Below, piece by piece: positions 46,913 to 57,774 of a stretch of DNA of 64,000 nucleotides; the stretch's first letter is position 1; each line of letters starts with the position of its first letter. The DNA comes from Limnochordia bacterium (GTDB lineage Bacteria; Bacillota; Limnochordia; DTU080; RSA5): contig JAWLDA010000005.1 of assembly GCA_041686855.1 (NCBI GenBank), positions 203,222-267,221 of the forward strand. The letters run 5' to 3'. The notes beneath the pieces were generated by a model, which was not told the DNA's origin, ran no database searches, and saw nothing but the letters and a program-made list of their open reading frames with translations. The position numbers and the translations under genes were made by a program.

Positions 46913-47491
46913 CTAGCGTACTGGATTCTCCGGACCGCGGCCGCGAAAGGCATCGCTAAAGGCGTCCAACGCCTCGCGCTCGAGTGAGTCGAGTGGGAGC
47001 AGATGGCGCCAGGCGGCAAGGACGTACGGGTGATCCATGTTAGGGCGAGGCACCGCGATGATGGCGTCCCACTGCCCTGTATACGATTTGGTCAGCGTCG
47101 AGAGGTACGCTTCGTCCTCAGGTGTCAGATTCTCCGGGCGGTAAAAGACGACGATGTGCCCGTGTTCGAGGTTGTGCACGACGAGCTCGTCGTCGATCGG
47201 CTGGTAGTAAAAGCCTGGAGGCGCCCAACGTGCGTAGTGAGCGCCGGAGTTGGGCGGATCAGTCTTGTAGGTGACCTGTTCTCCGACCGCAACGTGGGTT
47301 GCCCCTTCGGATGCGTACACTTGGACGCGGTCGGCAATGACGTCTGGAAGCCCGCGCACTTGCGAGTCATACCAATAGGCGGCCCCGAGAACGAGGACGA
47401 CGACGATGCCTACAATAATGTAGGTTTTGTTTCGCTTTTGATTGCGACGTGCGGTAGCGGCTTGTCGCCGCGAGGAGCGCGGGGTGCTCAT
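46913..47491 (-). CDS. DUF3105-like membrane-anchored protein
   Basis: N-terminal TM helix and a conserved HNLEHGH segment. The family assignment is from memory. Confidence 0.45.
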   Translation of the reverse strand: MSTPRSSRRQAATARRNQKRNKTYIIVGIVVVLVLGAAYWYDSQVRGLPDVIADRVQVYASEGATHVAVGEQVTYKTDPPNSGAHYARWAPPGFYYQPIDDELVVHNLEHGHIVVFYRPENLTPEDEAYLSTLTKSYTGQWDAIIAVPRPNMDHPYVLAAWRHLLPLDSLEREALDAFSDAFRGRGPENPVR

Positions 47492-47500
47492 CGTTTCCGA

Positions 47501-48031
47501 TCAAACCCTTTCGTCAAGAATTTCAAGGAGGTAATTCTCCATCTCTGCGCCGGAGAGTTGTCCGATGTGTCGTGAACGAATCACTCCGCGCCGATCGATA
47601 AAGATACTGGTTGGCATAGCCCGCACGAGGTACGAGCGTCCTACCTCCCCCTTGTGATCGAGGTAAATGGGGAACGTATAATCAAAATCCTCAAGGTAAC
47701 GAACGACCGTCTGTCTCGGTTCGTCCGAAATGGCTACAACGTGAAAGGCGCCGGCGTGTTCTTCGTAGAGAGCCTGAATCTCCGGCATCTCCTCGAGGCA
47801 GGGCAGGCACCACGTCGCCCAAAAGTTTATGAATACAGGTTTGCCTTGCAAAGACGCCAAGTCGACGGCGTCACCCGAGGATAGCTCTGTCACCGTGAAA
47901 TTGGGGGCGCGCTCTCCTTCAAACGTGCCGACAGCGGGTTGGCCGAAGTACCACAGGACCAAGGCGATGCCTGCCACTACCGCCCCCCACAAAAACCAGG
48001 TTGCGCGCGCTCTCCCTTTTTCAACGCTCAT
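47501..48031 (-). CDS. TlpA/ResA-family thiol:disulfide oxidoreductase
   Basis: WATWCLPC thioredoxin active site with an N-terminal TM anchor. Confidence 0.75.
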   Translation of the reverse strand: MSVEKGRARATWFLWGAVVAGIALVLWYFGQPAVGTFEGERAPNFTVTELSSGDAVDLASLQGKPVFINFWATWCLPCLEEMPEIQALYEEHAGAFHVVAISDEPRQTVVRYLEDFDYTFPIYLDHKGEVGRSYLVRAMPTSIFIDRRGVIRSRHIGQLSGAEMENYLLEILDERV

Positions 48032-48184
48032 GCGAGTCGTACCTCCTGCTCGAGTGGGTAAAGATCGCTGTTAACCTTTGGTGAAGCACCTTTCACACAT
48101 TCTTCACATTTCCTGCAGAGCGTGAACGGGCATTTGTGTTATGCTAAGGGCGAAAACTACGAAAGAGGCGTGAGTGGTGCATCT

Positions 48185-48616
48185 ATGAGTCTCTCAAAAC
48201 GGACCATCATAGCGCTTGTCCTGGTCGTCGGAGGTCTCGTCTATCTTATTTCGTCGGCCGTCTCCAACACAACCATGTATTATGTGACAGTCGAGGAGGC
48301 GCTTGCCAAAGGCGTCGACGCTGACAAGGGGATGCGGATCCAAGGGAACGTCGTGGGAGAGAGCATCAATTGGCAGCCGCGGGAGCTCTTGTTGCGCTTT
48401 GCGGTGGCCGGAGAGAGCGGCGAGAGTATCAAGGCCGTCTATCACGGACCTCGCCCGGACAACTTCACCGCGGATGCCCCAGCGATCCTTGAGGGGCGTT
48501 TCGGTACTGACGGTGTCTTTCAAGTCGAAAAGTTGATGCTCGCCTGTCCGTCCCGCTTCGAGGCGGAAGGGGCCGAACACCCCGGCACGATGGAGTTCCA
48601 GTACGTCGGTGAGTGA
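48185..48616 (+). CDS. ccmE: Cytochrome c maturation heme chaperone CcmE (variant heme-binding motif)
   Basis: N-terminal TM anchor and OB-fold, plus gene context with ccmABCD. At the aligned position the canonical LAKHDENY is replaced by LACPSRFE. Confidence 0.7.
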   Translation: MSLSKRTIIALVLVVGGLVYLISSAVSNTTMYYVTVEEALAKGVDADKGMRIQGNVVGESINWQPRELLLRFAVAGESGESIKAVYHGPRPDNFTADAPAILEGRFGTDGVFQVEKLMLACPSRFEAEGAEHPGTMEFQYVGE

Positions 48617-49322
48617 GGCTGCGCCGCTCCTGGCGGCTCGCGGTCTAAGCGTCCCCATCGGACGTCGCAGGCTCGTGCAGCCGACGGACCTTGCGTTGCG
48701 CGAGGGAGAATGGTGCGCCCTCATCGGTCCCAACGGAGCGGGCAAGAGCACGTTGGTGCGTGCGCTGGCGACGCTGATGCCCAGTGAAGGGCCGATCTCC
48801 TTTGCCGGCGAGGACGTTCGTCGGGATTCGCGGCGCTATCGGCGTCATTTGGGGGTCGTCTTGCACGAGCCGATGCTCTACAGGGAGTTGACGGCCCTCG
48901 AAAACCTGGAACTCTTCGCCAAGCTCTACCAGGTGACCGATCGGCGTCAAGAGATGTGGCGGCGTTTGGAACAGGTGGGTCTGGTGGAGCACGCGGTCGA
49001 GCCGGTCCGCCGCTTCTCTCGAGGGATGCTCCAGCGGCTTAGTGTGGCGCGGGCGTTGTTGCATCGGCCGCGCATCCTACTGCTGGACGAACCGCTTGAA
49101 GGGATCGACGCCACGGGGGCCGAGGAGTTGAAGGCCCTCTTTCTGCATGTGAAAGAGGAGGGCGTCGCGGCTATCTGGGTCACCCACAATTGGCGGCGGG
49201 CCTGGTCGGTGGTAGATGAGGTGTGGGAGATGCAGCGCGGCCTCATTCACAACCGCATACGGACAGAGCGGGTGAGCCCACAGACGTGGCGACCCCGGCA
49301 CTCGAGCGGGCTGGGTTACTGA
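48609..49322 (+). CDS. ccmA: Heme exporter ATPase CcmA
   Basis: Walker A GPNGAGKST, signature and Walker B LLLDEP. The GTG start overlaps the ccmE stop. Confidence 0.7.
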   Translation: MSEAAPLLAARGLSVPIGRRRLVQPTDLALREGEWCALIGPNGAGKSTLVRALATLMPSEGPISFAGEDVRRDSRRYRRHLGVVLHEPMLYRELTALENLELFAKLYQVTDRRQEMWRRLEQVGLVEHAVEPVRRFSRGMLQRLSVARALLHRPRILLLDEPLEGIDATGAEELKALFLHVKEEGVAAIWVTHNWRRAWSVVDEVWEMQRGLIHNRIRTERVSPQTWRPRHSSGLGY

Positions 49323-50002
49323 TGGGGGCGTACTGGAGTGTCGTCCTGGCCGTCGTCTGGCGGGACGCGCTGGTTGAGCGGCGGAACCTGCAGAGCTTGG
49401 TGGCGATGATCACGTTTGCTCTGTTGGTGGTGGTCCTCTTTCATTTCGCCTTTAACATTCAAGGAGGCGAGGAGGCGCGGTTCTTTCCGGGGGCCATCTG
49501 GGTCGCGCTCTTTTTCGGCGGCACCGTGGGGATGGCGCGCACGCTTCACATGGAGGAGGTAGACGGGCGGGGTCGAGCGTTGACGTTGGCGCCCGTCGAT
49601 CGAAGCGCCGTCTTCGTCGGAAAGTTTCTTTCGAATTTATTGCTTCTCGGAGTCACTCAGCTTGTAGCCGTTCCCCTCTTTGTGGCGGCGTTCCGCCTGC
49701 CAGGCATTGCCGCGCCGGGTCTCTTTGTCGGGGGATTGGCCTTAGGTACGTGGGGGTTTGCCGCCTTAGGGACGCTGCTCACAAACGCGGCGGGTGGGAG
49801 CCAGGGGCTCGGACTGATACTGCCTCTGCTACTCTTTCCTCTACTTGTGCCTGTTGCACTGGGTGGGGTGGCGTTGGTGGCAGCGGGCGTGAGCGGTGAG
49901 ACGGGGCCGGCAATAGTCTCGTGGATGCAGCTGTTGCTCGTCTTTGACCTCCTGTTCACCGTCTTGCCGGCGCTCTTTTACGAGTACATTGTGGAGGTGT
50001 AA
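49322..50002 (+). CDS. ccmB: Heme exporter membrane protein CcmB
   Basis: Six-TM protein of about 227 aa. The ATG overlaps the ccmA stop (TGATG). Confidence 0.65.
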   Translation: MGAYWSVVLAVVWRDALVERRNLQSLVAMITFALLVVVLFHFAFNIQGGEEARFFPGAIWVALFFGGTVGMARTLHMEEVDGRGRALTLAPVDRSAVFVGKFLSNLLLLGVTQLVAVPLFVAAFRLPGIAAPGLFVGGLALGTWGFAALGTLLTNAAGGSQGLGLILPLLLFPLLVPVALGGVALVAAGVSGETGPAIVSWMQLLLVFDLLFTVLPALFYEYIVEV

Positions 50003-50725
50003 GTGACGTTGCGAGTGCTGGATAAGTTGTTGAATCTCGTTATAAACGCCCGTACTCTCACCGGTGTGTTGTCGATGATCCTCGTGCCGATCTCGTTGTA
50101 CATGGTCTTTGTCTACGCCCCTCGGGAGGCGTCGATGGGCGACGTACAGCGGATCTTTTATTACCACGTCGGCACGGCCTGGAATGCGTTTCTCTTTTTT
50201 GGCCTGGTTGCAGCGAGTAGCCTTATCTACTTGGTCACCCGCAAGGAACGGTGGAATACGGCGGCACGCACCGCTGCAGAGTTGGGGGTCCTGTTTACCA
50301 CGCTGACCCTCGCAGCCGGCAGCCTGTGGGCCCGGCCCATTTGGAACGTGTGGTGGACGTGGGATCCCCGGCTTACGACCACGTTGATCCTCTGGTTTAT
50401 CTACATTGGGTATTTGTTGATTCAAGCCGGGGCGACGGAGAGCGTCGGTCAGCGTCGCTTTGGAGCGCTCGTCGGAGTGGTCGGATTCGTCGACATCCCG
50501 CTGATCCACTTCTCGGCGCGCCTCTGGCGCAGCATCCATCCTACGGTGATCCAACCCAACTCTCCCGGGATGCCGCCGGAGATGTTGATCACGATGTTTG
50601 TGTCGCTCCTCGCGTTGATGTCGGTCGGCTTCTTTCTGTGGGGTCAGCGGCTGATGATTGAGGAGCTTAAGGAGCAGGCGGAAGTGCTGAGGGACGAGTT
50701 GGCGCCTGCCAGCGTCCGGTCGTAG
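50003..50725 (+). CDS. ccmC: Heme exporter protein CcmC
   Basis: Tryptophan-rich WWD motif NVWWTWDPRL. GTG start immediately after the ccmB stop. Confidence 0.8.
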   Translation: MTLRVLDKLLNLVINARTLTGVLSMILVPISLYMVFVYAPREASMGDVQRIFYYHVGTAWNAFLFFGLVAASSLIYLVTRKERWNTAARTAAELGVLFTTLTLAAGSLWARPIWNVWWTWDPRLTTTLILWFIYIGYLLIQAGATESVGQRRFGALVGVVGFVDIPLIHFSARLWRSIHPTVIQPNSPGMPPEMLITMFVSLLALMSVGFFLWGQRLMIEELKEQAEVLRDELAPASVRS

Positions 50726-50831: not shown

Positions 50832-50978
50832 ATGTCGTATCTCTTTATCGCTTACTCGGTGGTTTGGTTGGGTGTTTTGTGGTACGTGTTTGTGTTGAAT
50901 AAGGAGAGCCGCCGCCTACGTGAGCGGATCGAATCGCTCGAAGCGTTGAAACGCAGACAGGAAGGGAGCGCTCATTGA
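50832..50978 (+). CDS. ccmD: Heme exporter protein CcmD (48 aa; below the 60-aa cutoff of the ORF track)
   Basis: MSYLFIAYSVVWLGVLWYVFVLNKESRRLRERIESLEALKRRQEGSAH: a single TM helix followed by a basic tail, positioned between ccmC and the ccmG-like gene. Confidence 0.5.
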   Translation: MSYLFIAYSVVWLGVLWYVFVLNKESRRLRERIESLEALKRRQEGSAH

Positions 50979-50980
50979 CG

Positions 50981-51535
50981 ATGAGACGGGGTGCAAAGAC
51001 GGGTCGTTCATACTTGAGCTTTGTGCCACTCGCCATCCTCGCGTTCTTTCTGGTACTCGCCTTTATGTATCAAGGGGGCATCGAAGCTCGCGCGACTGTC
51101 GGCGAGGTCGCGCCCGACTTCAAACTTCTCGGTTTGAATGGTGAAGAGGCGAGCCTTTCGGACTTTCGCGGTCGCCCCGTCGTGGTCAATTTTTGGACAA
51201 CGTGGTGTACCGAGTGCCGGACTGAGGTGCCTGAGCTGGAGCGACTCCATCAGCGCCGCGGCGATTCGGTGGTGGTCCTCGGTGTGAACATGAGAGAGCC
51301 GGAAAGCGTGATACGTCCGTTCCTTGACGAGCTCGGCGCGACCTACCCGGTCCTCCTCGACCGAGACAAAAAAGTAGCCAAAGCGTACCGCGTCACCGGC
51401 GTTCCGGAGACCTGGATCGTCTCGGCCGAAGGCGTGGCGTTGCACCGGTTTATTGGACCGGTGAGCGCGGCGCAACTGGAGCAGGCGCTCAACGTCACCT
51501 CCGGCGAGGCGACGACCGGGAAGGGAGGGGCCTAA
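50981..51535 (+). CDS. Thioredoxin-like CcmG/ResA-family thiol:disulfide oxidoreductase
   Basis: WTTWCTEC active site with an N-terminal TM anchor. Confidence 0.75.
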   Translation: MRRGAKTGRSYLSFVPLAILAFFLVLAFMYQGGIEARATVGEVAPDFKLLGLNGEEASLSDFRGRPVVVNFWTTWCTECRTEVPELERLHQRRGDSVVVLGVNMREPESVIRPFLDELGATYPVLLDRDKKVAKAYRVTGVPETWIVSAEGVALHRFIGPVSAAQLEQALNVTSGEATTGKGGA

Positions 51536-51540
51536 GGCTT

Positions 51541-52449
51541 ATGCGATTAAAGTCGATCGTCTTGTGGGGCGGCATCCTAGCCGCACTGGGGCTCTTTCTC
51601 TTCGTTGCCTTTCAATCGACTGTCACCCGCGGGATCGATGTAGGCGAGCCCGTGGATGGGTTGCGCCTCACTACGCTGTCGGGCGACGTGGTCGACCCCG
51701 GCGCCTGGCGCGGCAAAGGTGTCGTCTTGCGCTTCTCTTCGTCGAGCTGCACGACCTGTCCGCAGGACGGCCCACTCCTCGAAAGGTGGCAGCAAGACTT
51801 GGGTGACCAGATCCTGGTGCTCGCTGTCCAGGTGGGCGACACGGCGACGACGGCGCGGGCTGCATTGATGGGGGCCAACTCCGGCGTGCCGGTTCTCCTC
51901 GACACCGACGGTGCAGCGGCTCGACAACTGGGACTCAAACAGGTGCCGGCGGTCTACTTTATCACTGCACGGGGAACGCTCAGCTCCGTCTCCAATGTAG
52001 AGGTGGCGCGCACTGATATGGCCGGGCACGCCCGTCTCATGCTGGCCGGCGGTCCGACGATCGAGTCTGAGGTGCGAAGCGTCTCACAGCAGTTGCAGTG
52101 CCAGGAGTGTCAGGGTCGTTCAGCGTGGGAGTCGGACTCGCGCTCTTCGTTCGACATGAGGGAGCAAGTGCGTAACCGCCTGCTGGAGGGTGAACGGCCT
52201 GCGGAGATCTTGCAGGCGATCGCCGACGAGTATGGCGAGTGGATCTTGATGTCGCCTCCTGTTAGCGGTGTAGCGTCGCTGGCTTGGTTGTTGCCGATCG
52301 GGGCGACGCTCGTGGGTGGCGGCGCGTGGGCTCTGATGCTCAGGCGGGCCCGCAGGCGACTCCCAAAGGCGGAGGCGAAGGATGATGACACCGCGGCACT
52401 GGAGGAGAAACGGGCGCGCCTGAAGCGCCGAATCGACGAGTACATGTAG
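51541..52449 (+). CDS. Fusion of a thioredoxin-like (CcmG-type) domain and a CcmH/NrfF-like domain
   Basis: CxxC (SSCTTC) in the N-terminal half. The C-terminal half carries the CcmH motif LQCQECQGRS, a YGEWIL segment, a TM helix and a basic/acidic tail. Confidence 0.6.
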   Translation: MRLKSIVLWGGILAALGLFLFVAFQSTVTRGIDVGEPVDGLRLTTLSGDVVDPGAWRGKGVVLRFSSSSCTTCPQDGPLLERWQQDLGDQILVLAVQVGDTATTARAALMGANSGVPVLLDTDGAAARQLGLKQVPAVYFITARGTLSSVSNVEVARTDMAGHARLMLAGGPTIESEVRSVSQQLQCQECQGRSAWESDSRSSFDMREQVRNRLLEGERPAEILQAIADEYGEWILMSPPVSGVASLAWLLPIGATLVGGGAWALMLRRARRRLPKAEAKDDDTAALEEKRARLKRRIDEYM

Positions 52450-52455
52450 AGGCGG

Positions 52456-55400
52456 TTGCCAATGGAAACGCTTGCGCTCGTGGGCCGCAGCGCCCTCGTG
52501 CTTGCCTTTTTAACGTTTGTCGGCGCAGGGCTCTTGCGCCTGTTGCATCGGGAGGGTCTGGACGTCTCGGCGCCTGCCAACCGGTGGGCGCACCGTCTCC
52601 TGTGGGCTGGATGGGGGCTCACCTCGGCGGCGCTGTTCCTGTTGGTCGGACTCTTTGTGGCCGATGCGTTCGCCTTCACGTACGTGTCCGGGCGCTCAAA
52701 CCGTGAGATGGCCACCGTCTACAAGGTGACAGCGCTGTGGGCCGGACAAGAGGGATCGCTCCTCCTCTGGCTGTGGATTCAGTCCAGCTACGCTCTCTTG
52801 GTGAGTCACAAGGCGATGTGGAGCAGGCGGCTTGACGTGGGGGCCGCCGGAGTGCTCGCCCTGATCGCATCGTTCTTTGCCCTCTTGGTCGCCTTTGTGG
52901 CGAGCCCATTCCTGCTCAACGCGACTCCCCCGGCCGACGGCGCCGGCATGAATCCTATCCTGCAGAGTTACTGGATGACGGCCCATCCGGTGATGTTATA
53001 CCTCGGCTACGTCGGCCTCTCGGTTCCCTTTGCCTATGGGGCAAGCTCGTTGATCAACCGCAGCGACGCATGGATTCGGGCGACGCGGCGCTGGTCGTTG
53101 GTGGCGTGGACATTTCTAAGCATCGGCATCCTCTTCGGCGCCCGCTGGGCGTACGAGGAGCTCGGCTGGGGCGGCTACTGGGGCTGGGATCCGGTTGAGA
53201 ATGCGTCGTTTATGCCCTGGTTGGTGGCGACGGCCTTCGTTCACTCGGGCCTCATTCAAGAGAAGCGTGGGATGCTGAAGCGATGGAACCACGTGCTCAT
53301 CTTTGCCACTTACCTCTTGACGATTTTTGGCACCTTTATCACACGCAGTGGCATCCTCTCGAGCGTCCACGCGTTCGTGGAGTCGGACATCAGTCCATGG
53401 TTCATTGGCTTTGTCGGTCTCCTCGTCGCCGGGTACCTCTACGGTTTGACGCAGCGATGGGAGTCGCTGAAGGATGAGCGGCGGGTGGATTCGCCGCTCT
53501 CCAAAGAGTCGTCGTTCCTCGCCAACAACGTTGTCCTCTTGGCGAGCGCCTTCGCCATCTTTTGGGGAACCGTCTTCCCGCTGATCGCCTCTGCGCTGGG
53601 GCGGCAGGTGACGGTGGGCGCGCCGTACTTCGACAAGGTGACGGCGCCGCTCTTTTGGTTGTTGATTGTGTTGATGGGCATCGGGCCGCTCATCGCGTGG
53701 CGCCGGGCCTCGCCCCAGAGCTTGCGGCGGCACTTCACCGCCCCAGTCATCAACGCGCTCTTTATGCTGGTGTGGCTCTTAGTCGTCGGGCTGCGCGAGA
53801 GTGTGACGCTCTTTACGCTCCCCGCCGTCGTCTTTGTCTTTACGACGATCCTCATGGAGTTCGCCCGCGGCGTCGGGGTCCGCATGCGCTCGCGGGGAGA
53901 GCCCTTTTGGTTGGCGTTGCCGCGCATGATGAACCGCAGTCCAGGCCGGTACGGCGGGTACGTCGTTCACCTGGGAATTCTCCTGTTGGTCGTGGGAATC
54001 TCGGCGACCGGTGTCTACCAGCAAGAGCAAAACGCTGTGCTGGGCGTCGGTGAGGAGGCGCGCGTCGGTGGTTACACGCTCTCGCTGTACGATGTGCGCC
54101 ACACACAGCACGGTGCCGTCCCGGCCGTCGAGGCGGATTTGTTGGTCCGGGACCCTGGAGGGGAGATACTTGGATTCTTGCGCCCGAGTAAGCGGTTTTA
54201 CCCGGGGAGCGAGACGATGGGCCCCACGACAGAGGTGGCGGTCTACGGGACCTTGCGGGGGGACGTGTACGCGGTCCTGGCCGGCTGGGAACCGTACGGC
54301 AGCCTCGTCGGCTTTAAGCTTTACTTCACGCCGTTGGTGTGGCTGATTTGGACCGGGGGAGGCCTCCTGGTCTTTGGCGGGCTCTTCGCCTTTTGGCCGC
54401 GCACCAAGCGGGTCCTCTCGGAATCCGAGCACGCGTTGGCATCGATGGCGGAGCTTGAGTACGACTTTCGGATGGGGAAGGTGAACGAGAGCGAGTACCG
54501 TGCGCTCTTTGTCGAGTTGTCGGGGAAAGCTGAGTCGTACTTGGCGCGAGAGGCTGAAGCGATTCGGCGCGTTGAAGCCGAGTTGGCGGGCGCCTCTGAG
54601 GACGCGAAGGAGCAAGACTCGTCTGGATCTCAAGGCGGCGACCGCTCGGACGGTCGAGGCAATGGCGCCAAGCTGTTGAGCGTTGCGCTCCTCGCGGGTA
54701 TGCTCAGCCTGAGCCTTCCCGCGTGTGTATCGGCCCAGGCGCCGGCGGTGCCACCGGTCGAAGGCGGAATGCCGAGCGGCATGGGACCAGGCGTCGCGGT
54801 GACGAGCGACGTCCTCGTCGTCAGCGCCATTGGGCCTCGACTCTCAGTCCTCAACTTTGTGAACCTCACTAACGTTGGTGAAGAGGCGGTCGGTGAGATT
54901 CACGTACCGATTCCCAAAGGGGCGATCCTGCAGGAGCGGCAGCCCGAGCGACTCGCCCCTGCCGAGGACGGAACACTCGTTGACCCTGAAGCGCTCCTCC
55001 CCGACGAGGATCGACGCTACACTCTGCGCTACGAGATACCGGTGATGCGGTGGCCGTACCCCTTTTTGAGAGAGATCGAGTACCCGACTCGGGAGTTGAC
55101 GCTCCTCGGCGACACACAGAACCTGAACGTGAGTGGCGTCGACGTCGTCCAGGCGGGGCAGGAGAGCGTGGCTGGAGCCGTCTTTACGACCTTCCGAAGC
55201 GAGTGGATTGCGCCGGGGACGACGTGGCAGGCTGTCTTTAAGCCGACGGCGGCCCTCGGCCCCCTCCCAGGTTGGGACGAGCGTATCGATCGACTCGACG
55301 TGATCGCCGAAGCGGATCGCTTCCCTGGTGACTGGTTGTTTCAGCAGCTTGTAGGGTTGCCCGGATGGCTGCAGGGCGCCGTGTTGATCCTCGTAGGCGC

Positions 55401-55692
55401 AGGGAGTGTCGCTGTTCTCCTGCGGCGACGGGCGGCTCACGGCTCCGGCGAGACCGATGCTGCGCCCACCGCGGGCATCGGTCCGACGCGTGCGGAGGGC
55501 ACGCCTGCGGGGACCTCAGCCGGATCGGACCCCTCGGGGGATTCCGGTGAGACAGAACGAGATGCGTTGTTGCGCGCGGTCGCCCGACTCGACATCGCCT
55601 ACAGTGAAGGGGCGTTGCCTGAGCGTGGATACCGGCGCCGGCGGCTGGCGCTCATCGAACGTTTAAAGAAGGAGATGCCGCGTGGCACCTAA
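52456..55692 (+). CDS. ccmF: CcmF (cytochrome c heme lyase subunit) fused to a C-terminal extension of about 430 aa
   Basis: The CcmF core spans about residues 1-650 with a WGGYWGWDPVEN WWD-type motif and conserved His residues. One uninterrupted ORF then continues through a charged linker, a signal-peptide-like segment, a domain of about 280 aa, a further TM helix and a basic tail. Confidence 0.75.
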   Translation: MPMETLALVGRSALVLAFLTFVGAGLLRLLHREGLDVSAPANRWAHRLLWAGWGLTSAALFLLVGLFVADAFAFTYVSGRSNREMATVYKVTALWAGQEGSLLLWLWIQSSYALLVSHKAMWSRRLDVGAAGVLALIASFFALLVAFVASPFLLNATPPADGAGMNPILQSYWMTAHPVMLYLGYVGLSVPFAYGASSLINRSDAWIRATRRWSLVAWTFLSIGILFGARWAYEELGWGGYWGWDPVENASFMPWLVATAFVHSGLIQEKRGMLKRWNHVLIFATYLLTIFGTFITRSGILSSVHAFVESDISPWFIGFVGLLVAGYLYGLTQRWESLKDERRVDSPLSKESSFLANNVVLLASAFAIFWGTVFPLIASALGRQVTVGAPYFDKVTAPLFWLLIVLMGIGPLIAWRRASPQSLRRHFTAPVINALFMLVWLLVVGLRESVTLFTLPAVVFVFTTILMEFARGVGVRMRSRGEPFWLALPRMMNRSPGRYGGYVVHLGILLLVVGISATGVYQQEQNAVLGVGEEARVGGYTLSLYDVRHTQHGAVPAVEADLLVRDPGGEILGFLRPSKRFYPGSETMGPTTEVAVYGTLRGDVYAVLAGWEPYGSLVGFKLYFTPLVWLIWTGGGLLVFGGLFAFWPRTKRVLSESEHALASMAELEYDFRMGKVNESEYRALFVELSGKAESYLAREAEAIRRVEAELAGASEDAKEQDSSGSQGGDRSDGRGNGAKLLSVALLAGMLSLSLPACVSAQAPAVPPVEGGMPSGMGPGVAVTSDVLVVSAIGPRLSVLNFVNLTNVGEEAVGEIHVPIPKGAILQERQPERLAPAEDGTLVDPEALLPDEDRRYTLRYEIPVMRWPYPFLREIEYPTRELTLLGDTQNLNVSGVDVVQAGQESVAGAVFTTFRSEWIAPGTTWQAVFKPTAALGPLPGWDERIDRLDVIAEADRFPGDWLFQQLVGLPGWLQGAVLILVGAGSVAVLLRRRAAHGSGETDAAPTAGIGPTRAEGTPAGTSAGSDPSGDSGETERDALLRAVARLDIAYSEGALPERGYRRRRLALIERLKKEMPRGT

Positions 55693-56380
55693 GGTGCTGG
55701 TTGTGGACGACGAGGAACGGATGCGCTCCCTTCTCAAGCTGCACCTGAGACAGTGCTTTGAGGTGGTCACGGCCTCCTCAGGGGAGGAGGCGCTGGAGCG
55801 CGTCCGGTCGGAGCGGTTTGACGCCGTCGTTCTCGATATACTGATGCCCGGCCTCGACGGGCGGGAAGTATGCCGCCGCATTCGGAGCATGAGCGCCGTG
55901 CCGCTCCTCATGCTCACGGCGCTGGCCGACGTCGAAGAGAAGCTCGAAGCGTTTGACCGGGGCGCGGACGACTACCTAACGAAGCCGTTCGATCCCCGGG
56001 AGCTCGTCGCTCGAGTCGAGGCGCTCATTCGCCGGTCCCAAGCGAGCTCAGATCCGGCGCCGGCCGGGACGCCGCCAACCCTCGAGTACGGTCCGCTCCG
56101 CCTCGATCAGGCGGCCCGTGTGGTGCAGGTGGAGGGGCGCGAGCTGGCGCTCACTCCCAAGGAGTACGAACTCCTCCTCTTTTTGACGCAAGCCCCGGGA
56201 CGCCCATTCTCGCGGGAAGAGCTCCTCCAGGAGGTGTGGCGCGACGCTGCCTTTGCGCAGACTCGTACCGTGGACAGCCACATCAAGACACTGCGCGAAA
56301 AGCTCGGTCGAGACGGTGTGGGCGCCACCCTTGTCACCGTGTGGGGGGTAGGGTACAAATTCGATCCCCAGGGCCTTTAA
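55682..56380 (+). CDS. OmpR/PhoB-family response regulator (ResD-like)
   Basis: Receiver domain (VLVVDDEE...D...K) and a winged-helix output domain. The GTG start overlaps the ccmF stop. Confidence 0.85.
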   Translation: MAPKVLVVDDEERMRSLLKLHLRQCFEVVTASSGEEALERVRSERFDAVVLDILMPGLDGREVCRRIRSMSAVPLLMLTALADVEEKLEAFDRGADDYLTKPFDPRELVARVEALIRRSQASSDPAPAGTPPTLEYGPLRLDQAARVVQVEGRELALTPKEYELLLFLTQAPGRPFSREELLQEVWRDAAFAQTRTVDSHIKTLREKLGRDGVGATLVTVWGVGYKFDPQGL

Positions 56381-56412
56381 GACTCGGAATCACCGACAAA
56401 CTCTGGCTCTCC

Positions 56413-57774
56413 ATGCTCGCCATGGTCGCCGTCATCCTCATTCCCGTCGGCGTCGCCATCGACCGTGGCGTCACCCAGTTTTACTACCAACAAAATACGC
56501 GGGAGATGCTCGCCTTTGGGCAGCGTCTCGCCGATTTTATCGAACGGGCCCCCGCACCCGGCGCCGCTGAAGCCGTTCGATCCATCGCACAACTCGCCGG
56601 GACGCCTATCATGCTTATCGACACCGACGCCCGCGTGAGCGCGGGCTCGGGGCAGCTGGCGGCCGAGGTGGGGCGGAGGGTCCAGTCCGAGCAGGCGCAA
56701 AACGCGCTAAAAGGCGACGCCTCGGTCGTCTTGGCTGTGGATGAGACGCTGCCTGGAAGCCTCTTTGTAGCGGCGGTTCCGGTAGGGCGGGGCGATCGTG
56801 CGATCGGCGCCGTCCTCCTCTTTCGTTCCGCCGATGAAGTGAGTGCGACCCTCACCCGAATGCGAGCGCTCCTGGGGTTTGGCGGCGGCTCCTTTTTGCT
56901 GCTCGTTTGGGTGGTGGGCTGGCTCCTCTCGCGCAGAATCGTTCGACCCATCCTCCAAATGAAGGAGACCGCCGATCGCATGGCGAGCGGCGACTACTCG
57001 ACACGGGTCTCGGGGAGCGGTAACGACGAGTTGACGGAGTTGGCGAACGCCATCAATCGGCTGGGTGAATCGTTGCATTCGCTTGCAGCGGGGCGACGCG
57101 CTTTCTTTGCTAACGTCTCGCACGAGCTGAGGACGCCGCTCAGCTACGTCCGTGGCTACTCCGACGCCCTTGCCCACGGCCTCTTTGAGAGTGAGGAGGA
57201 GGTGCGCGAGACGGGGCGCATCCTCTCGGAGGAGTCCAAACGCCTCAGTCGCCTCGTCGACGATCTCTTCGACCTCGCCCAGGCGGAGGAGGGACGGCTT
57301 CGTCTCGAAGTGGAGCGGTTGAATGCGAGTGATGCAATCGAAGAGATCGTGGTACGCATGCAGAGCGTGGCGGAGCAAAAAGGAATCCGCCTGCAGGCTG
57401 AGGCCTCTGAGGCGCTGTGGCTCGAGGCTGATCCGCTCCGGTTTGAACAGATCATGGTGAACTTCCTGGACAACGCGCTGCGGCACACGCCCGAAGGCGG
57501 GCGGGTGCAGGTGAGCGGGCTGCGAGAGCCGGGCGGTCGAGTCACTGTAACTGTCGAAGACAGCGGTCCGGGCTTGGGCGCCGAACCGCATCGGGTGTGG
57601 GAGCGTTTTTACCGTGGGGATGAGTCGCGCAATCGCAACCTAGGCGGGAGCGGTCTGGGCCTCGCCATCGTCAAGAGCCTCGTCGAGTTGCACGGCGGCG
57701 ACGTGTTTGCGGACAACCGAAGCACGTATGGCGGCGCACGCTTCGGCTTTGTGCTGCCGTCGATCGATGGCTAG
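56413..57774 (+). CDS. Sensor histidine kinase (ResE-like)
   Basis: Two TM helices, a HAMP domain, the H-box HELRTPLSYVRGY, and N/G1/G2 boxes (GSGLGLAIV). The ORF is open from 56236 and overlaps the regulator gene. ATG at 56413 is the first start downstream of the regulator stop. Confidence 0.8.
   Translation: MLAMVAVILIPVGVAIDRGVTQFYYQQNTREMLAFGQRLADFIERAPAPGAAEAVRSIAQLAGTPIMLIDTDARVSAGSGQLAAEVGRRVQSEQAQNALKGDASVVLAVDETLPGSLFVAAVPVGRGDRAIGAVLLFRSADEVSATLTRMRALLGFGGGSFLLLVWVVGWLLSRRIVRPILQMKETADRMASGDYSTRVSGSGNDELTELANAINRLGESLHSLAAGRRAFFANVSHELRTPLSYVRGYSDALAHGLFESEEEVRETGRILSEESKRLSRLVDDLFDLAQAEEGRLRLEVERLNASDAIEEIVVRMQSVAEQKGIRLQAEASEALWLEADPLRFEQIMVNFLDNALRHTPEGGRVQVSGLREPGGRVTVTVEDSGPGLGAEPHRVWERFYRGDESRNRNLGGSGLGLAIVKSLVELHGGDVFADNRSTYGGARFGFVLPSIDG

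Follow-up and report, generated by a model that had tools for sequence, protein, structure and literature searches.

A locus in the genome of a Limnochordia bacterium raises the question of why a gene for CcmF, the catalytic subunit of the haem lyase in cytochrome c maturation System I, should be some 430 codons too long. The gene lies in a 64,000-nucleotide stretch of assembly GCA_041686855.1 (contig JAWLDA010000005.1), which is referred to here as the window, and it occupies an open reading frame (ORF) at 52456..55692 on the forward strand that runs on in the same frame for approximately 427 residues past CcmF residue 651. A sequence-only reading had offered two answers, namely, a genuine fusion of CcmF with a CcmH- or CcmI-like accessory module or a frameshift or stop-codon error that joined two genes. 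Our comparisons with relatives make it nearly certain that ccmF and a ccm-linked partner gene have been naturally joined in frame in this ORF. The partner, named X here, is an uncharacterised membrane protein of ccm operons that is encoded by a separate gene in relatives. Overall, we regard it as somewhat more likely than not that X is a haem-lyase accessory that resembles CcmI in role and lacks its tetratricopeptide repeats (TPRs). The ORF, its core and the predicted elements of its extension are listed below.

52456..55692, + strand: whole ORF, CcmF::X fusion; 1,078 amino acids (aa) from TTG, likelier start ATG 52462
52456..54408, + strand: complete CcmF haem-lyase core, residues 1-651, ~15 transmembrane (TM) helices (PF01578, PF16327 and alignment to 6ZMQ)
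54334..54396, + strand: last CcmF TM helix (TM15), outside to inside; in the position of CcmI TM1 in an hhalign match
54430..54591, + strand: predicted cytoplasmic helical motif 1 (HALASMAELEYDFRMGKVNESEYRALFVEL..., LEYDFRMGK...), residues 659-712; like the CcmI N-terminal loop
54592..54672, + strand: low-complexity acidic/Gly/Ser linker, residues 713-739; the junction, where relatives have the ccmF stop and the X start
54673..54738, + strand: internal signal-peptide-like TM16, inside to outside, with an n-h-c layout, ending V-S-A/Q (the slash marks the predicted cut)
54793..55248, + strand: predicted exported beta-sandwich domain of X, residues ~780-931; conserved N806, Y859, Y876-P877-T878 and P849-G850
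55366..55422, + strand: TM17 WLQGAVLILVGAGSVAVLL, residues 971-989, outside to inside, followed by cytoplasmic RRRAAH
55555..55677, + strand: predicted cytoplasmic tail motif 2 ERDALLRAVARLDIAYSEGALPERGYRRRRLALIERLKKEM, residues 1034-1074; hallmark tail of the X family, related to motif 1

The length of 1,078 aa is counted from the first possible start (TTG 52456). The ATG at 52462 is the likelier start because it is better spaced from the AGG that lies just after the CcmH stop codon.

The CcmF portion is complete. Pfam models Cytochrom_C_asm (PF01578; E 6e-34, residues 95-298) and CcmF_C (PF16327; E 3.5e-56, residues 320-647) both match, and residues 6-651 align with the solved Thermus thermophilus CcmF (6ZMQ, 660 aa; E 6e-106). 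The WWD motif WGGYWGWDPVENAS occupies residues 238-251 (bases 53167-53208). H177, H263, H305 and H505 fall within blocks that are conserved in the alignment with 6ZMQ; from E. coli CcmF, we take these to be the two periplasmic and two TM haem ligands. The score against TIGR00353 (398.5 bits) is below the curated NCBIfam cutoff of 569, and the protein is 1,078 aa long versus the approximately 650 aa expected. Thus, the likeness to canonical CcmF/NrfE extends from end to end of residues 1-651, with the WWD motif and the four histidines kept. The difference is that canonical CcmF (660 aa in 6ZMQ; ~650 aa in E. coli) ends a few residues past its last TM helix, whereas the window protein continues for ~427 residues. 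The protein therefore reads as a divergent CcmF with a complete core plus an added module, and the sequence-only reading had correctly placed the end of canonical CcmF, including the WWD motif, at about residue 650.

The same fusion was found in relatives. A scan of a species-representative genome collection returned one relative locus only (L002), in a metagenome-assembled genome (MAG) labelled "uncultured Clostridia bacterium." Its ORF (1,071 aa) has the same CcmF-plus-extension layout, with 38% identity to the window overall in the extension (36% in the best tblastn segment), and its operon (ccmE-ccmA-ccmB-(ccmC)-tlpA-like-[trx-ccmH]-ccmF::X-response regulator) matches that of the window. 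An exhaustive profile search added a 1,081-aa fusion (P0002), the contig of which (L003) has a window-type ccm operon. The 90%-identity cluster of this protein has 25 members from Limnochordia-type assemblies, many of them full-length (1,081 aa) and from separate assemblies. One member, an NCBI Limnochordia bacterium entry, carries no annotation beyond "CcmF C-terminal domain-containing protein." A fragment with 50% identity (48% by BLASTP) that is open to its contig end (P0001, on L001) shares the hydrophobic segment and the downstream response regulator of the window. The exact window fusion protein had no record in the contig index.

The extension homologues were found at E values of 2e-77 to 4e-205, a similarity that is far beyond chance. 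The linkers vary in length and sequence between the window and the related fusions, and the codon-position GC signal (high at third positions, low at second positions) keeps one frame through the junction of CcmF and extension. Because the fusion recurs across relatives with differing linkers, it must have been inherited and maintained rather than produced by error, which bears out the first of the two answers above. In the comparison of CcmF lengths that had been suggested as a check, the fused proteins of L002 and P0002 have 1,071 and 1,081 aa, and a split ccmF encodes 720 aa.

That split ccmF is found at locus L006. It ends approximately 70 residues past its last TM helix with ...LRELEYDRAMERVPEADYARIRAAL..., and its TGA overlaps the ATG of a separate X gene (P0010, 334 aa). 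The product of the latter aligns with the window residues from the signal-like helix through the tail. Locus L009 has the same split arrangement, and L004 and L005 look like the L006 layout with the upstream gene cut by the contig end. The window ORF thus consists of a ccmF with a motif-bearing tail plus X, with a linker in place of the stop/start overlap.

Word-indexed protein searches with the extension returned only the fragment P0001, and the remaining relatives required an exhaustive HMMER profile search, which yielded 92 relatives at E ≤ 1e-3. Scanned against Pfam and NCBIfam, the extension drew nothing but subthreshold noise (CdvA, GvpG and a CcmH match over a TM helix). The hidden Markov model (HMM) search proposed earlier for the extension thus returned no Pfam or NCBIfam family, and relatives emerged from the exhaustive search instead. 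Almost all 92 relatives share an N-terminal signal or TM segment, a beta domain, one TM helix and a cytoplasmic tail motif of the pattern L..I..LD.aY..G.l.e..Y..rR..Lk..L. Five relatives (P0061, P0080, P0082, P0086 and P0092) additionally bear a lipoprotein-like signal at the N terminus, followed by one or two cytochrome c (CXXCH) domains.

Gene context was sampled at about a dozen loci out of the 92 relatives, and X lay among or beside ccm genes at every looked-up locus with enough flank. At L010/L011, where X has only ~18% identity to the domain in the window, the order is ccmE-ccmF (670 aa)-ccmH-[154-aa protein with a TM helix, the motif and a zinc ribbon]-X-ccmA-ccmB-ccmC-ccmD, followed by maf-radC-mreBCD. 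The P0082 locus reads ccmE-ccmF-ccmH-tlpA-[zinc-ribbon protein]-X-ccmA-B-C-D, and its X bears two cytochrome c domains; here, the product of a ccm-operon gene lying between those for the zinc-ribbon partner and CcmA is a c-type cytochrome in its own right. An Anaerolineae MAG (L018) has [TM + motif + zinc ribbon]-X-ccmC-ccmD, and an ATP-binding cassette (ABC) ATPase gene follows X at L007. In the split lineages, the gene after X encodes a 438- to 460-aa protein (L004, 1199..2515; L005, 1186..2514; L009, 2467..3849) with an N-terminal TlpA-like redoxin and faint C-terminal matches to Sortilin-Vps10 (beta-propeller-like), which is unusual for a ccm-linked redoxin. Locus L008 (dsbD-ccmF::X-ccmH) carries a second, very divergent fusion (P0052; 2490..5306, 938 aa). 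Neither the motif after CcmF nor that of the tail is present in P0052, so that this protein may have arisen by a separate fusion or may have lost the motif pair secondarily.

The small protein before X in L010 and L018 has one TM helix (..YPLL/F..), then motif 1 and then zinc ribbons. Its motif reads IEFDYRMNKLSGEDYEEL and LEFDRAMGKLSEADYQEL at these two loci, versus LEYDFRMGKVNESEYRAL in the window. In P0078, the small TM/motif/zinc-ribbon protein is fused to X. The family of this small partner has more than 400 members, mostly from Chloroflexota, which are named in their sources only "zinc ribbon domain-containing" or "hypothetical." The conserved unit is therefore a TM helix with motif 1 plus an X with motif 2, in which motif 1 is carried either by the small protein or by the C terminus of CcmF.

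The topology of the window protein was derived by counting hydrophobic segments. Fifteen TM segments in the CcmF part place the WWD loop and the domain at residues 521-621 outside and the C terminus inside, in agreement with the 6ZMQ structure. The stretch after TM15 starts with PRTKR and has 14 K/R among its 94 residues; it is predicted to be cytoplasmic. The signal-like hydrophobic segment (residues 740-760; bases 54673-54735) ends in LSLPACVSA. The chain would thus proceed from 15-TM CcmF through motif 1 inside, TM16 outward, the beta-sandwich outside and TM17 inward to motif 2 inside. Since the beta domain follows an N-terminal signal peptide in stand-alone X, the comparison puts this ~200-aa beta-sandwich on the outer face of the membrane, on the same side as the WWD haem site of CcmF and the side on which CcmH acts. 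The linker, signal-like segment, unrecognised domain, TM helix and tail listed by the sequence-only reading all proved to be where it had put them. A lipoprotein reading of "LPAC" within the signal-like segment was considered and rejected because Pro is unusual at position -2 and neither L001 nor L002 has the Cys.

The exported domain was modelled with AlphaFold2 (AF2). On a two-sequence alignment of the whole extension, this domain reached a predicted local distance difference test (pLDDT) score of only 43. With a 72-homologue alignment, it was modelled as an all-beta sandwich of 12 strands (pLDDT 89; predicted TM-score 0.81). The fold matches the N-domain of M1 aminopeptidases/LTA4 hydrolase and Ost1/ribophorin I of oligosaccharyltransferase at 5-16% identity. 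X differs from these proteins in that it lacks a peptidase catalytic domain and matches neither Peptidase_M1 nor ribophorin in Pfam, and any functional parallel would be an analogy. In a conservation analysis of the beta domain, no Cys, His or Met proved to be conserved. This speaks against X itself carrying out haem, metal or thiol chemistry, and the idea that the domain binds haem or a metal was rejected on this ground.

To compare the motifs, we derived an HMM from the tail sequences of 20 X-family members that are not fusions, which gave the following independent E values (i-E).

Window tail, residues 1022-1076: i-E 8e-15
Window motif 1: i-E 0.07
P0002 motif 1: i-E 7e-5
P0078 N terminus: i-E 5.5e-5
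L010 small protein: i-E 0.012
Upstream CcmH tail: i-E 1.4 (4.9 bits, not significant)

On the basis of these scores, motifs 1 and 2 are related to each other and not to CcmH. Both were modelled by AF2 as helix-turn-helix hairpins with moderate confidence. The resemblance that had been noted between the tail and that of the upstream CcmH-like protein was consequently not upheld; the tail resembles the motif directly after CcmF instead. When the extension was tested for a CcmH domain with an LRCxxC motif, none was found; it has a single Cys (C757) and no CXXC. The PF03918 match (15.2 bits; cutoff, 25) falls over the last TM helix of CcmF, and the real CcmH is the upstream gene. For SHOCT (PF09851), the window tail had no match, and only P0078 gave one (18.1 bits; cutoff, 27).

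Is the module then CcmI-like? TIGR03142 (CcmI N-terminal) was the top NCBIfam match for three independent motif-1 modules (P0078, 18.8 bits; L010 small protein, 17.1; L009 CcmF tail, 13.6), all below its cutoff of 29.3 bits. We compared eight motif modules with three CcmI sequences taken from plasmid records (two from Rhizobium and one from Pseudomonas aeruginosa); E. coli CcmH and Caballeronia CcmI have short loops lacking the motif and could not be used. With hhalign, the TM helix plus loop matched at 82.6% probability (E 1e-5). The loop alone scored 18.4 (P 0.002), versus 6.3-11.6 for eight column-shuffled controls and 11.4 for a reversed control. A remote relationship between the motif 1 region and the membrane/loop part of CcmI is thus plausible but unproven. 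Searches of the extension for TPRs found no such family in Pfam or NCBIfam, and the AF2 model of the exported domain is all-beta. The description "CcmH/CcmI-like" is partly upheld, by the weak CcmI N-terminal resemblance of motif 1; neither TPRs, nor CcmH likeness, nor a CXXC was found.

CcmI is a membrane-anchored apocytochrome chaperone in the CcmFHI haem-ligation complex (PMC3884852, PMC3601427). CcmI (CycH in Rhodobacter, Rhizobium and Pseudomonas; the C-terminal half of E. coli CcmH) is, like X, encoded in ccm operons. If the last helix of CcmF is counted as TM1, the two also share the succession of TM helix, cytoplasmic helical loop, TM helix and large periplasmic domain, with the loop motif in register (LAELEYDFRMGKVNESEYRAL versus LLELDREVETNQLGRNEYEYARAEV). 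X differs from CcmI in that its periplasmic domain is predicted to be an all-beta sandwich rather than TPR, in its extra C-terminal TM helix with a second motif copy and, in the window, in being joined to CcmF, whereas CcmI is free or part of a CcmH fusion.

We propose that the CcmF/CcmH haem lyase has X as an accessory subunit, in the role that TPR-type CcmI plays in proteobacteria. The beta-sandwich would hold or present unfolded apocytochrome c, or another client, beside the WWD site of the lyase. The two cytoplasmic hairpins would pair and dock X onto CcmF or, where the small TM/motif/zinc-ribbon protein carries motif 1, onto that protein. In the lineage of the window, the docking would have become covalent, and signal peptidase may later separate the two halves at the conserved V-x-A/Q site. 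The parts of this proposal differ in strength. Because X is fused to CcmF and encoded in the ccm operons of relatives, it is marked as a likely overlooked helper of cytochrome c assembly. A physical association of X with CcmF/CcmH is implied by the fusions (window, L002, P0002 and P0052) together with the operon linkage. The absence of both motifs from P0052, a single case, would fit motifs that act as a pair and become dispensable after covalent tethering. The substrate-handling role borrowed from CcmI is more tentative, and we would not put it at an even chance. The wider reading comes close to an even chance without reaching it: X and its CcmI-N-terminal-like module would form a System I component of Chloroflexota and Limnochordia-type Bacillota that docks onto CcmF via paired hairpins and replaces CcmI without TPRs, handling apocytochromes by its beta-sandwich.

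Several points weigh against this proposal. The linkage of X to ccm genes comes from the dozen or so sampled loci out of 92 relatives, and the pairing of the motifs was deduced from co-occurrence and one co-loss rather than computed. The motif of the window itself matches no CcmI model, TIGR03142 included, and the hhalign probability for the loop alone is just 14%. X has no TPR repeats, unlike CcmI; given that only the 64-kb window was in view, a TPR-type CcmI may be encoded elsewhere in the genome. Finally, the match of the beta-sandwich is at the level of the modelled fold only, given the 5-16% identity, and no conserved Cys, His or Met in X points to a chemistry.

Among the alternatives, the one that survives best is a refinement of the proposed fusion and compatible with it, and we consider it possible, if clearly short of an even chance. 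It holds that one chain is made and that signal peptidase I cuts it at VSA/Q (760/761), which would yield CcmF with motif 1 and TM16 plus a mature type I membrane protein X. TM16 has the n-h-c layout of a signal peptide, with an n-region containing R/K, an 18-residue hydrophobic core and then V-S-A/Q; V110, A112 and Q113 are invariant among three aligned fusion-clade sequences, and the signal peptides of stand-alone X proteins end in A/V-x-A followed by Q (VRAQ, AAAQ, ARAQ and VSAQ). The Bradyrhizobium FbcH cytochrome b-c1 precursor is cut at an internal signal sequence. On the other hand, the site in P0002 is less typical (ALAAALPGQ), and the motif might have been kept simply because the fusion is recent or because the end of the helix requires it structurally.

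It is less likely, and to us doubtful, that X is a ccm-linked subunit with a task other than substrate chaperoning, namely, to serve as a platform on which the components of thiol reduction (TlpA/CcmG-like redoxins and CcmH), holo-CcmE or the components of electron input would dock. TlpA-like redoxins always follow X in the split lineages, one of them fused to a beta-propeller-like domain, and the window operon has three redoxin domains plus a Trx-CcmH fusion. The cytochrome c domains of several X relatives would suit electron transfer or haem reduction near CcmF, but they are confined to some Chloroflexota-type members. The lack of conserved Cys, His and Met in the beta domain also indicates that X itself is not redox-active, and its nearest folds (the M1 aminopeptidase N-domain and Ost1) come from proteins that act on peptides or nascent chains.

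Very unlikely is a role for the extension as a sensor or adaptor that reports cytochrome maturation status to the overlapping two-component system. An OmpR-type regulator gene does overlap the fusion stop (55682 versus 55692), with a HAMP histidine kinase gene next to it, and the same regulator follows the fusion in L001 and L002. However, the split and distant lineages have redoxins or ccmA-C after X and no two-component system, which indicates that the conserved association of X is with ccm genes, and the kinase is equipped with a TM and HAMP input module of its own.

The weakest alternative, the lost stop or frameshift of the sequence-only reading by which sequencing or assembly would have merged two genes with two true products, has a negligible probability: the junction is low-complexity and a single error could fuse two genes that overlap by one base at stop and start, as in L006, but L002 (38% identity), P0002/L003 and many cluster members of full length have the fusion with different linkers, P0052 is a second and far more divergent CcmF::X fusion, the codon-position GC signal keeps to one frame throughout, and the alternative frames offer no ORF restoring a separate X start.

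Natural fusions of cytochrome c synthase subunits are known (E. coli CcmH, which is CcmH plus CcmI, and Helicobacter CcsBA) and have been taken as evidence of physical interaction (PMC3601427, PMC10663686). The likeness is that subunits encoded by separate genes in most organisms are fused; the difference is that here the catalytic CcmF is joined to a protein of no described family. If the wider reading is true, the CcmF::X fusion would be Rosetta-stone evidence for a physical interaction. The literature that we searched describes no CcmF fusion of this kind, no X and no zinc-ribbon partner as a ccm component, and searches on a CcmF C-terminal extension, on ccm with zinc ribbons, on Limnochorda cytochromes and on FbcH cleavage returned nothing relevant. 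The window thus shows a System I with an undescribed accessory module, which is here fused to the catalytic subunit.

Work on System I has centred on proteobacteria, and CcmA-I are taken to be the full set of its components. X is a concrete, testable candidate for the accessory function that passes apocytochromes to CcmF/H where TPR-type CcmI is absent. The family has no Pfam or NCBIfam model, occurs in the ccm operons of at least two phyla and appears fused to the catalytic subunit in two separate lineages. For annotation, the fusion explains CcmF genes that are ~430 codons too long, and such genes should not be "corrected" as frameshifts. A tethered CcmF-partner protein could also aid structural work on the haem lyase, as the natural CcsBA fusion did for System II.

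The fusion ORF belongs to a ccm operon, with the following genes upstream.

48122..48616, + strand: CcmE, Cys-type (CPSRF)
48609..49322, + strand: CcmA
49223..50002, + strand: CcmB
50003..50725, + strand: CcmC
50832..50978, + strand: CcmD, 48-aa ORF MSYLFIAYSVVWLGVLWYVFVLNKESRRLRERIESLEALKRRQEGSAH between ccmC and the redoxin gene (by size, position and single TM helix)
50975..51535, + strand: CcmG/TlpA-like redoxin
51541..52449, + strand: thioredoxin-like (CTTC) domain fused to CcmH (CQEC); upstream operon partner of the fusion

The CcmD ORF is below the 80-aa threshold of the ORF list. The CPSRF motif of CcmE has Cys in place of the haem-binding His and Phe instead of the usual Tyr. This Cys-type variant ("System I*") has been reported for deltaproteobacteria, Chloroflexi and Firmicutes, and its combination with Phe in place of Tyr is rare (PMC3601427). 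The window operon shares the Cys-type CcmE of System I*; it does contain CcmH, fused to a thioredoxin-like domain, and the System I* literature has neither X nor the TM/motif/zinc-ribbon partner.

The product of 51541..52449 consists of a TlpA/ResA-like thioredoxin-fold domain followed by a CcmH domain (LQCQECQG), a TM helix and a tail, and trx-CcmH fusions of 299-303 aa are also present in L002 and L003. Together with CcmF::X, this fusion means that the lineage has fused both its thiol-reduction module and its lyase module. Divergently oriented upstream of the operon are genes for a third TlpA-like redoxin and a DUF3105 protein (47501..48031 and 46913..47491, both on the - strand). The neighbourhood thereby holds three redoxin-fold genes plus the trx-CcmH fusion. 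An Rfam scan of the window found nothing.

Downstream, the OmpR-type response regulator gene (55682..56380, + strand) overlaps the fusion-ORF stop by 11 bases and is followed by the HAMP/HisKA kinase gene (~56377..57774, + strand); the same regulator lies downstream of the fusion in L001 and L002 as well. This two-component pair may couple regulation to cytochrome maturation. As called mechanically, the ccmA and ccmB ORFs overlap by 100 bases and the kinase and response regulator ORFs by 145 bases; in reality, ccmB and the kinase gene probably begin further downstream.

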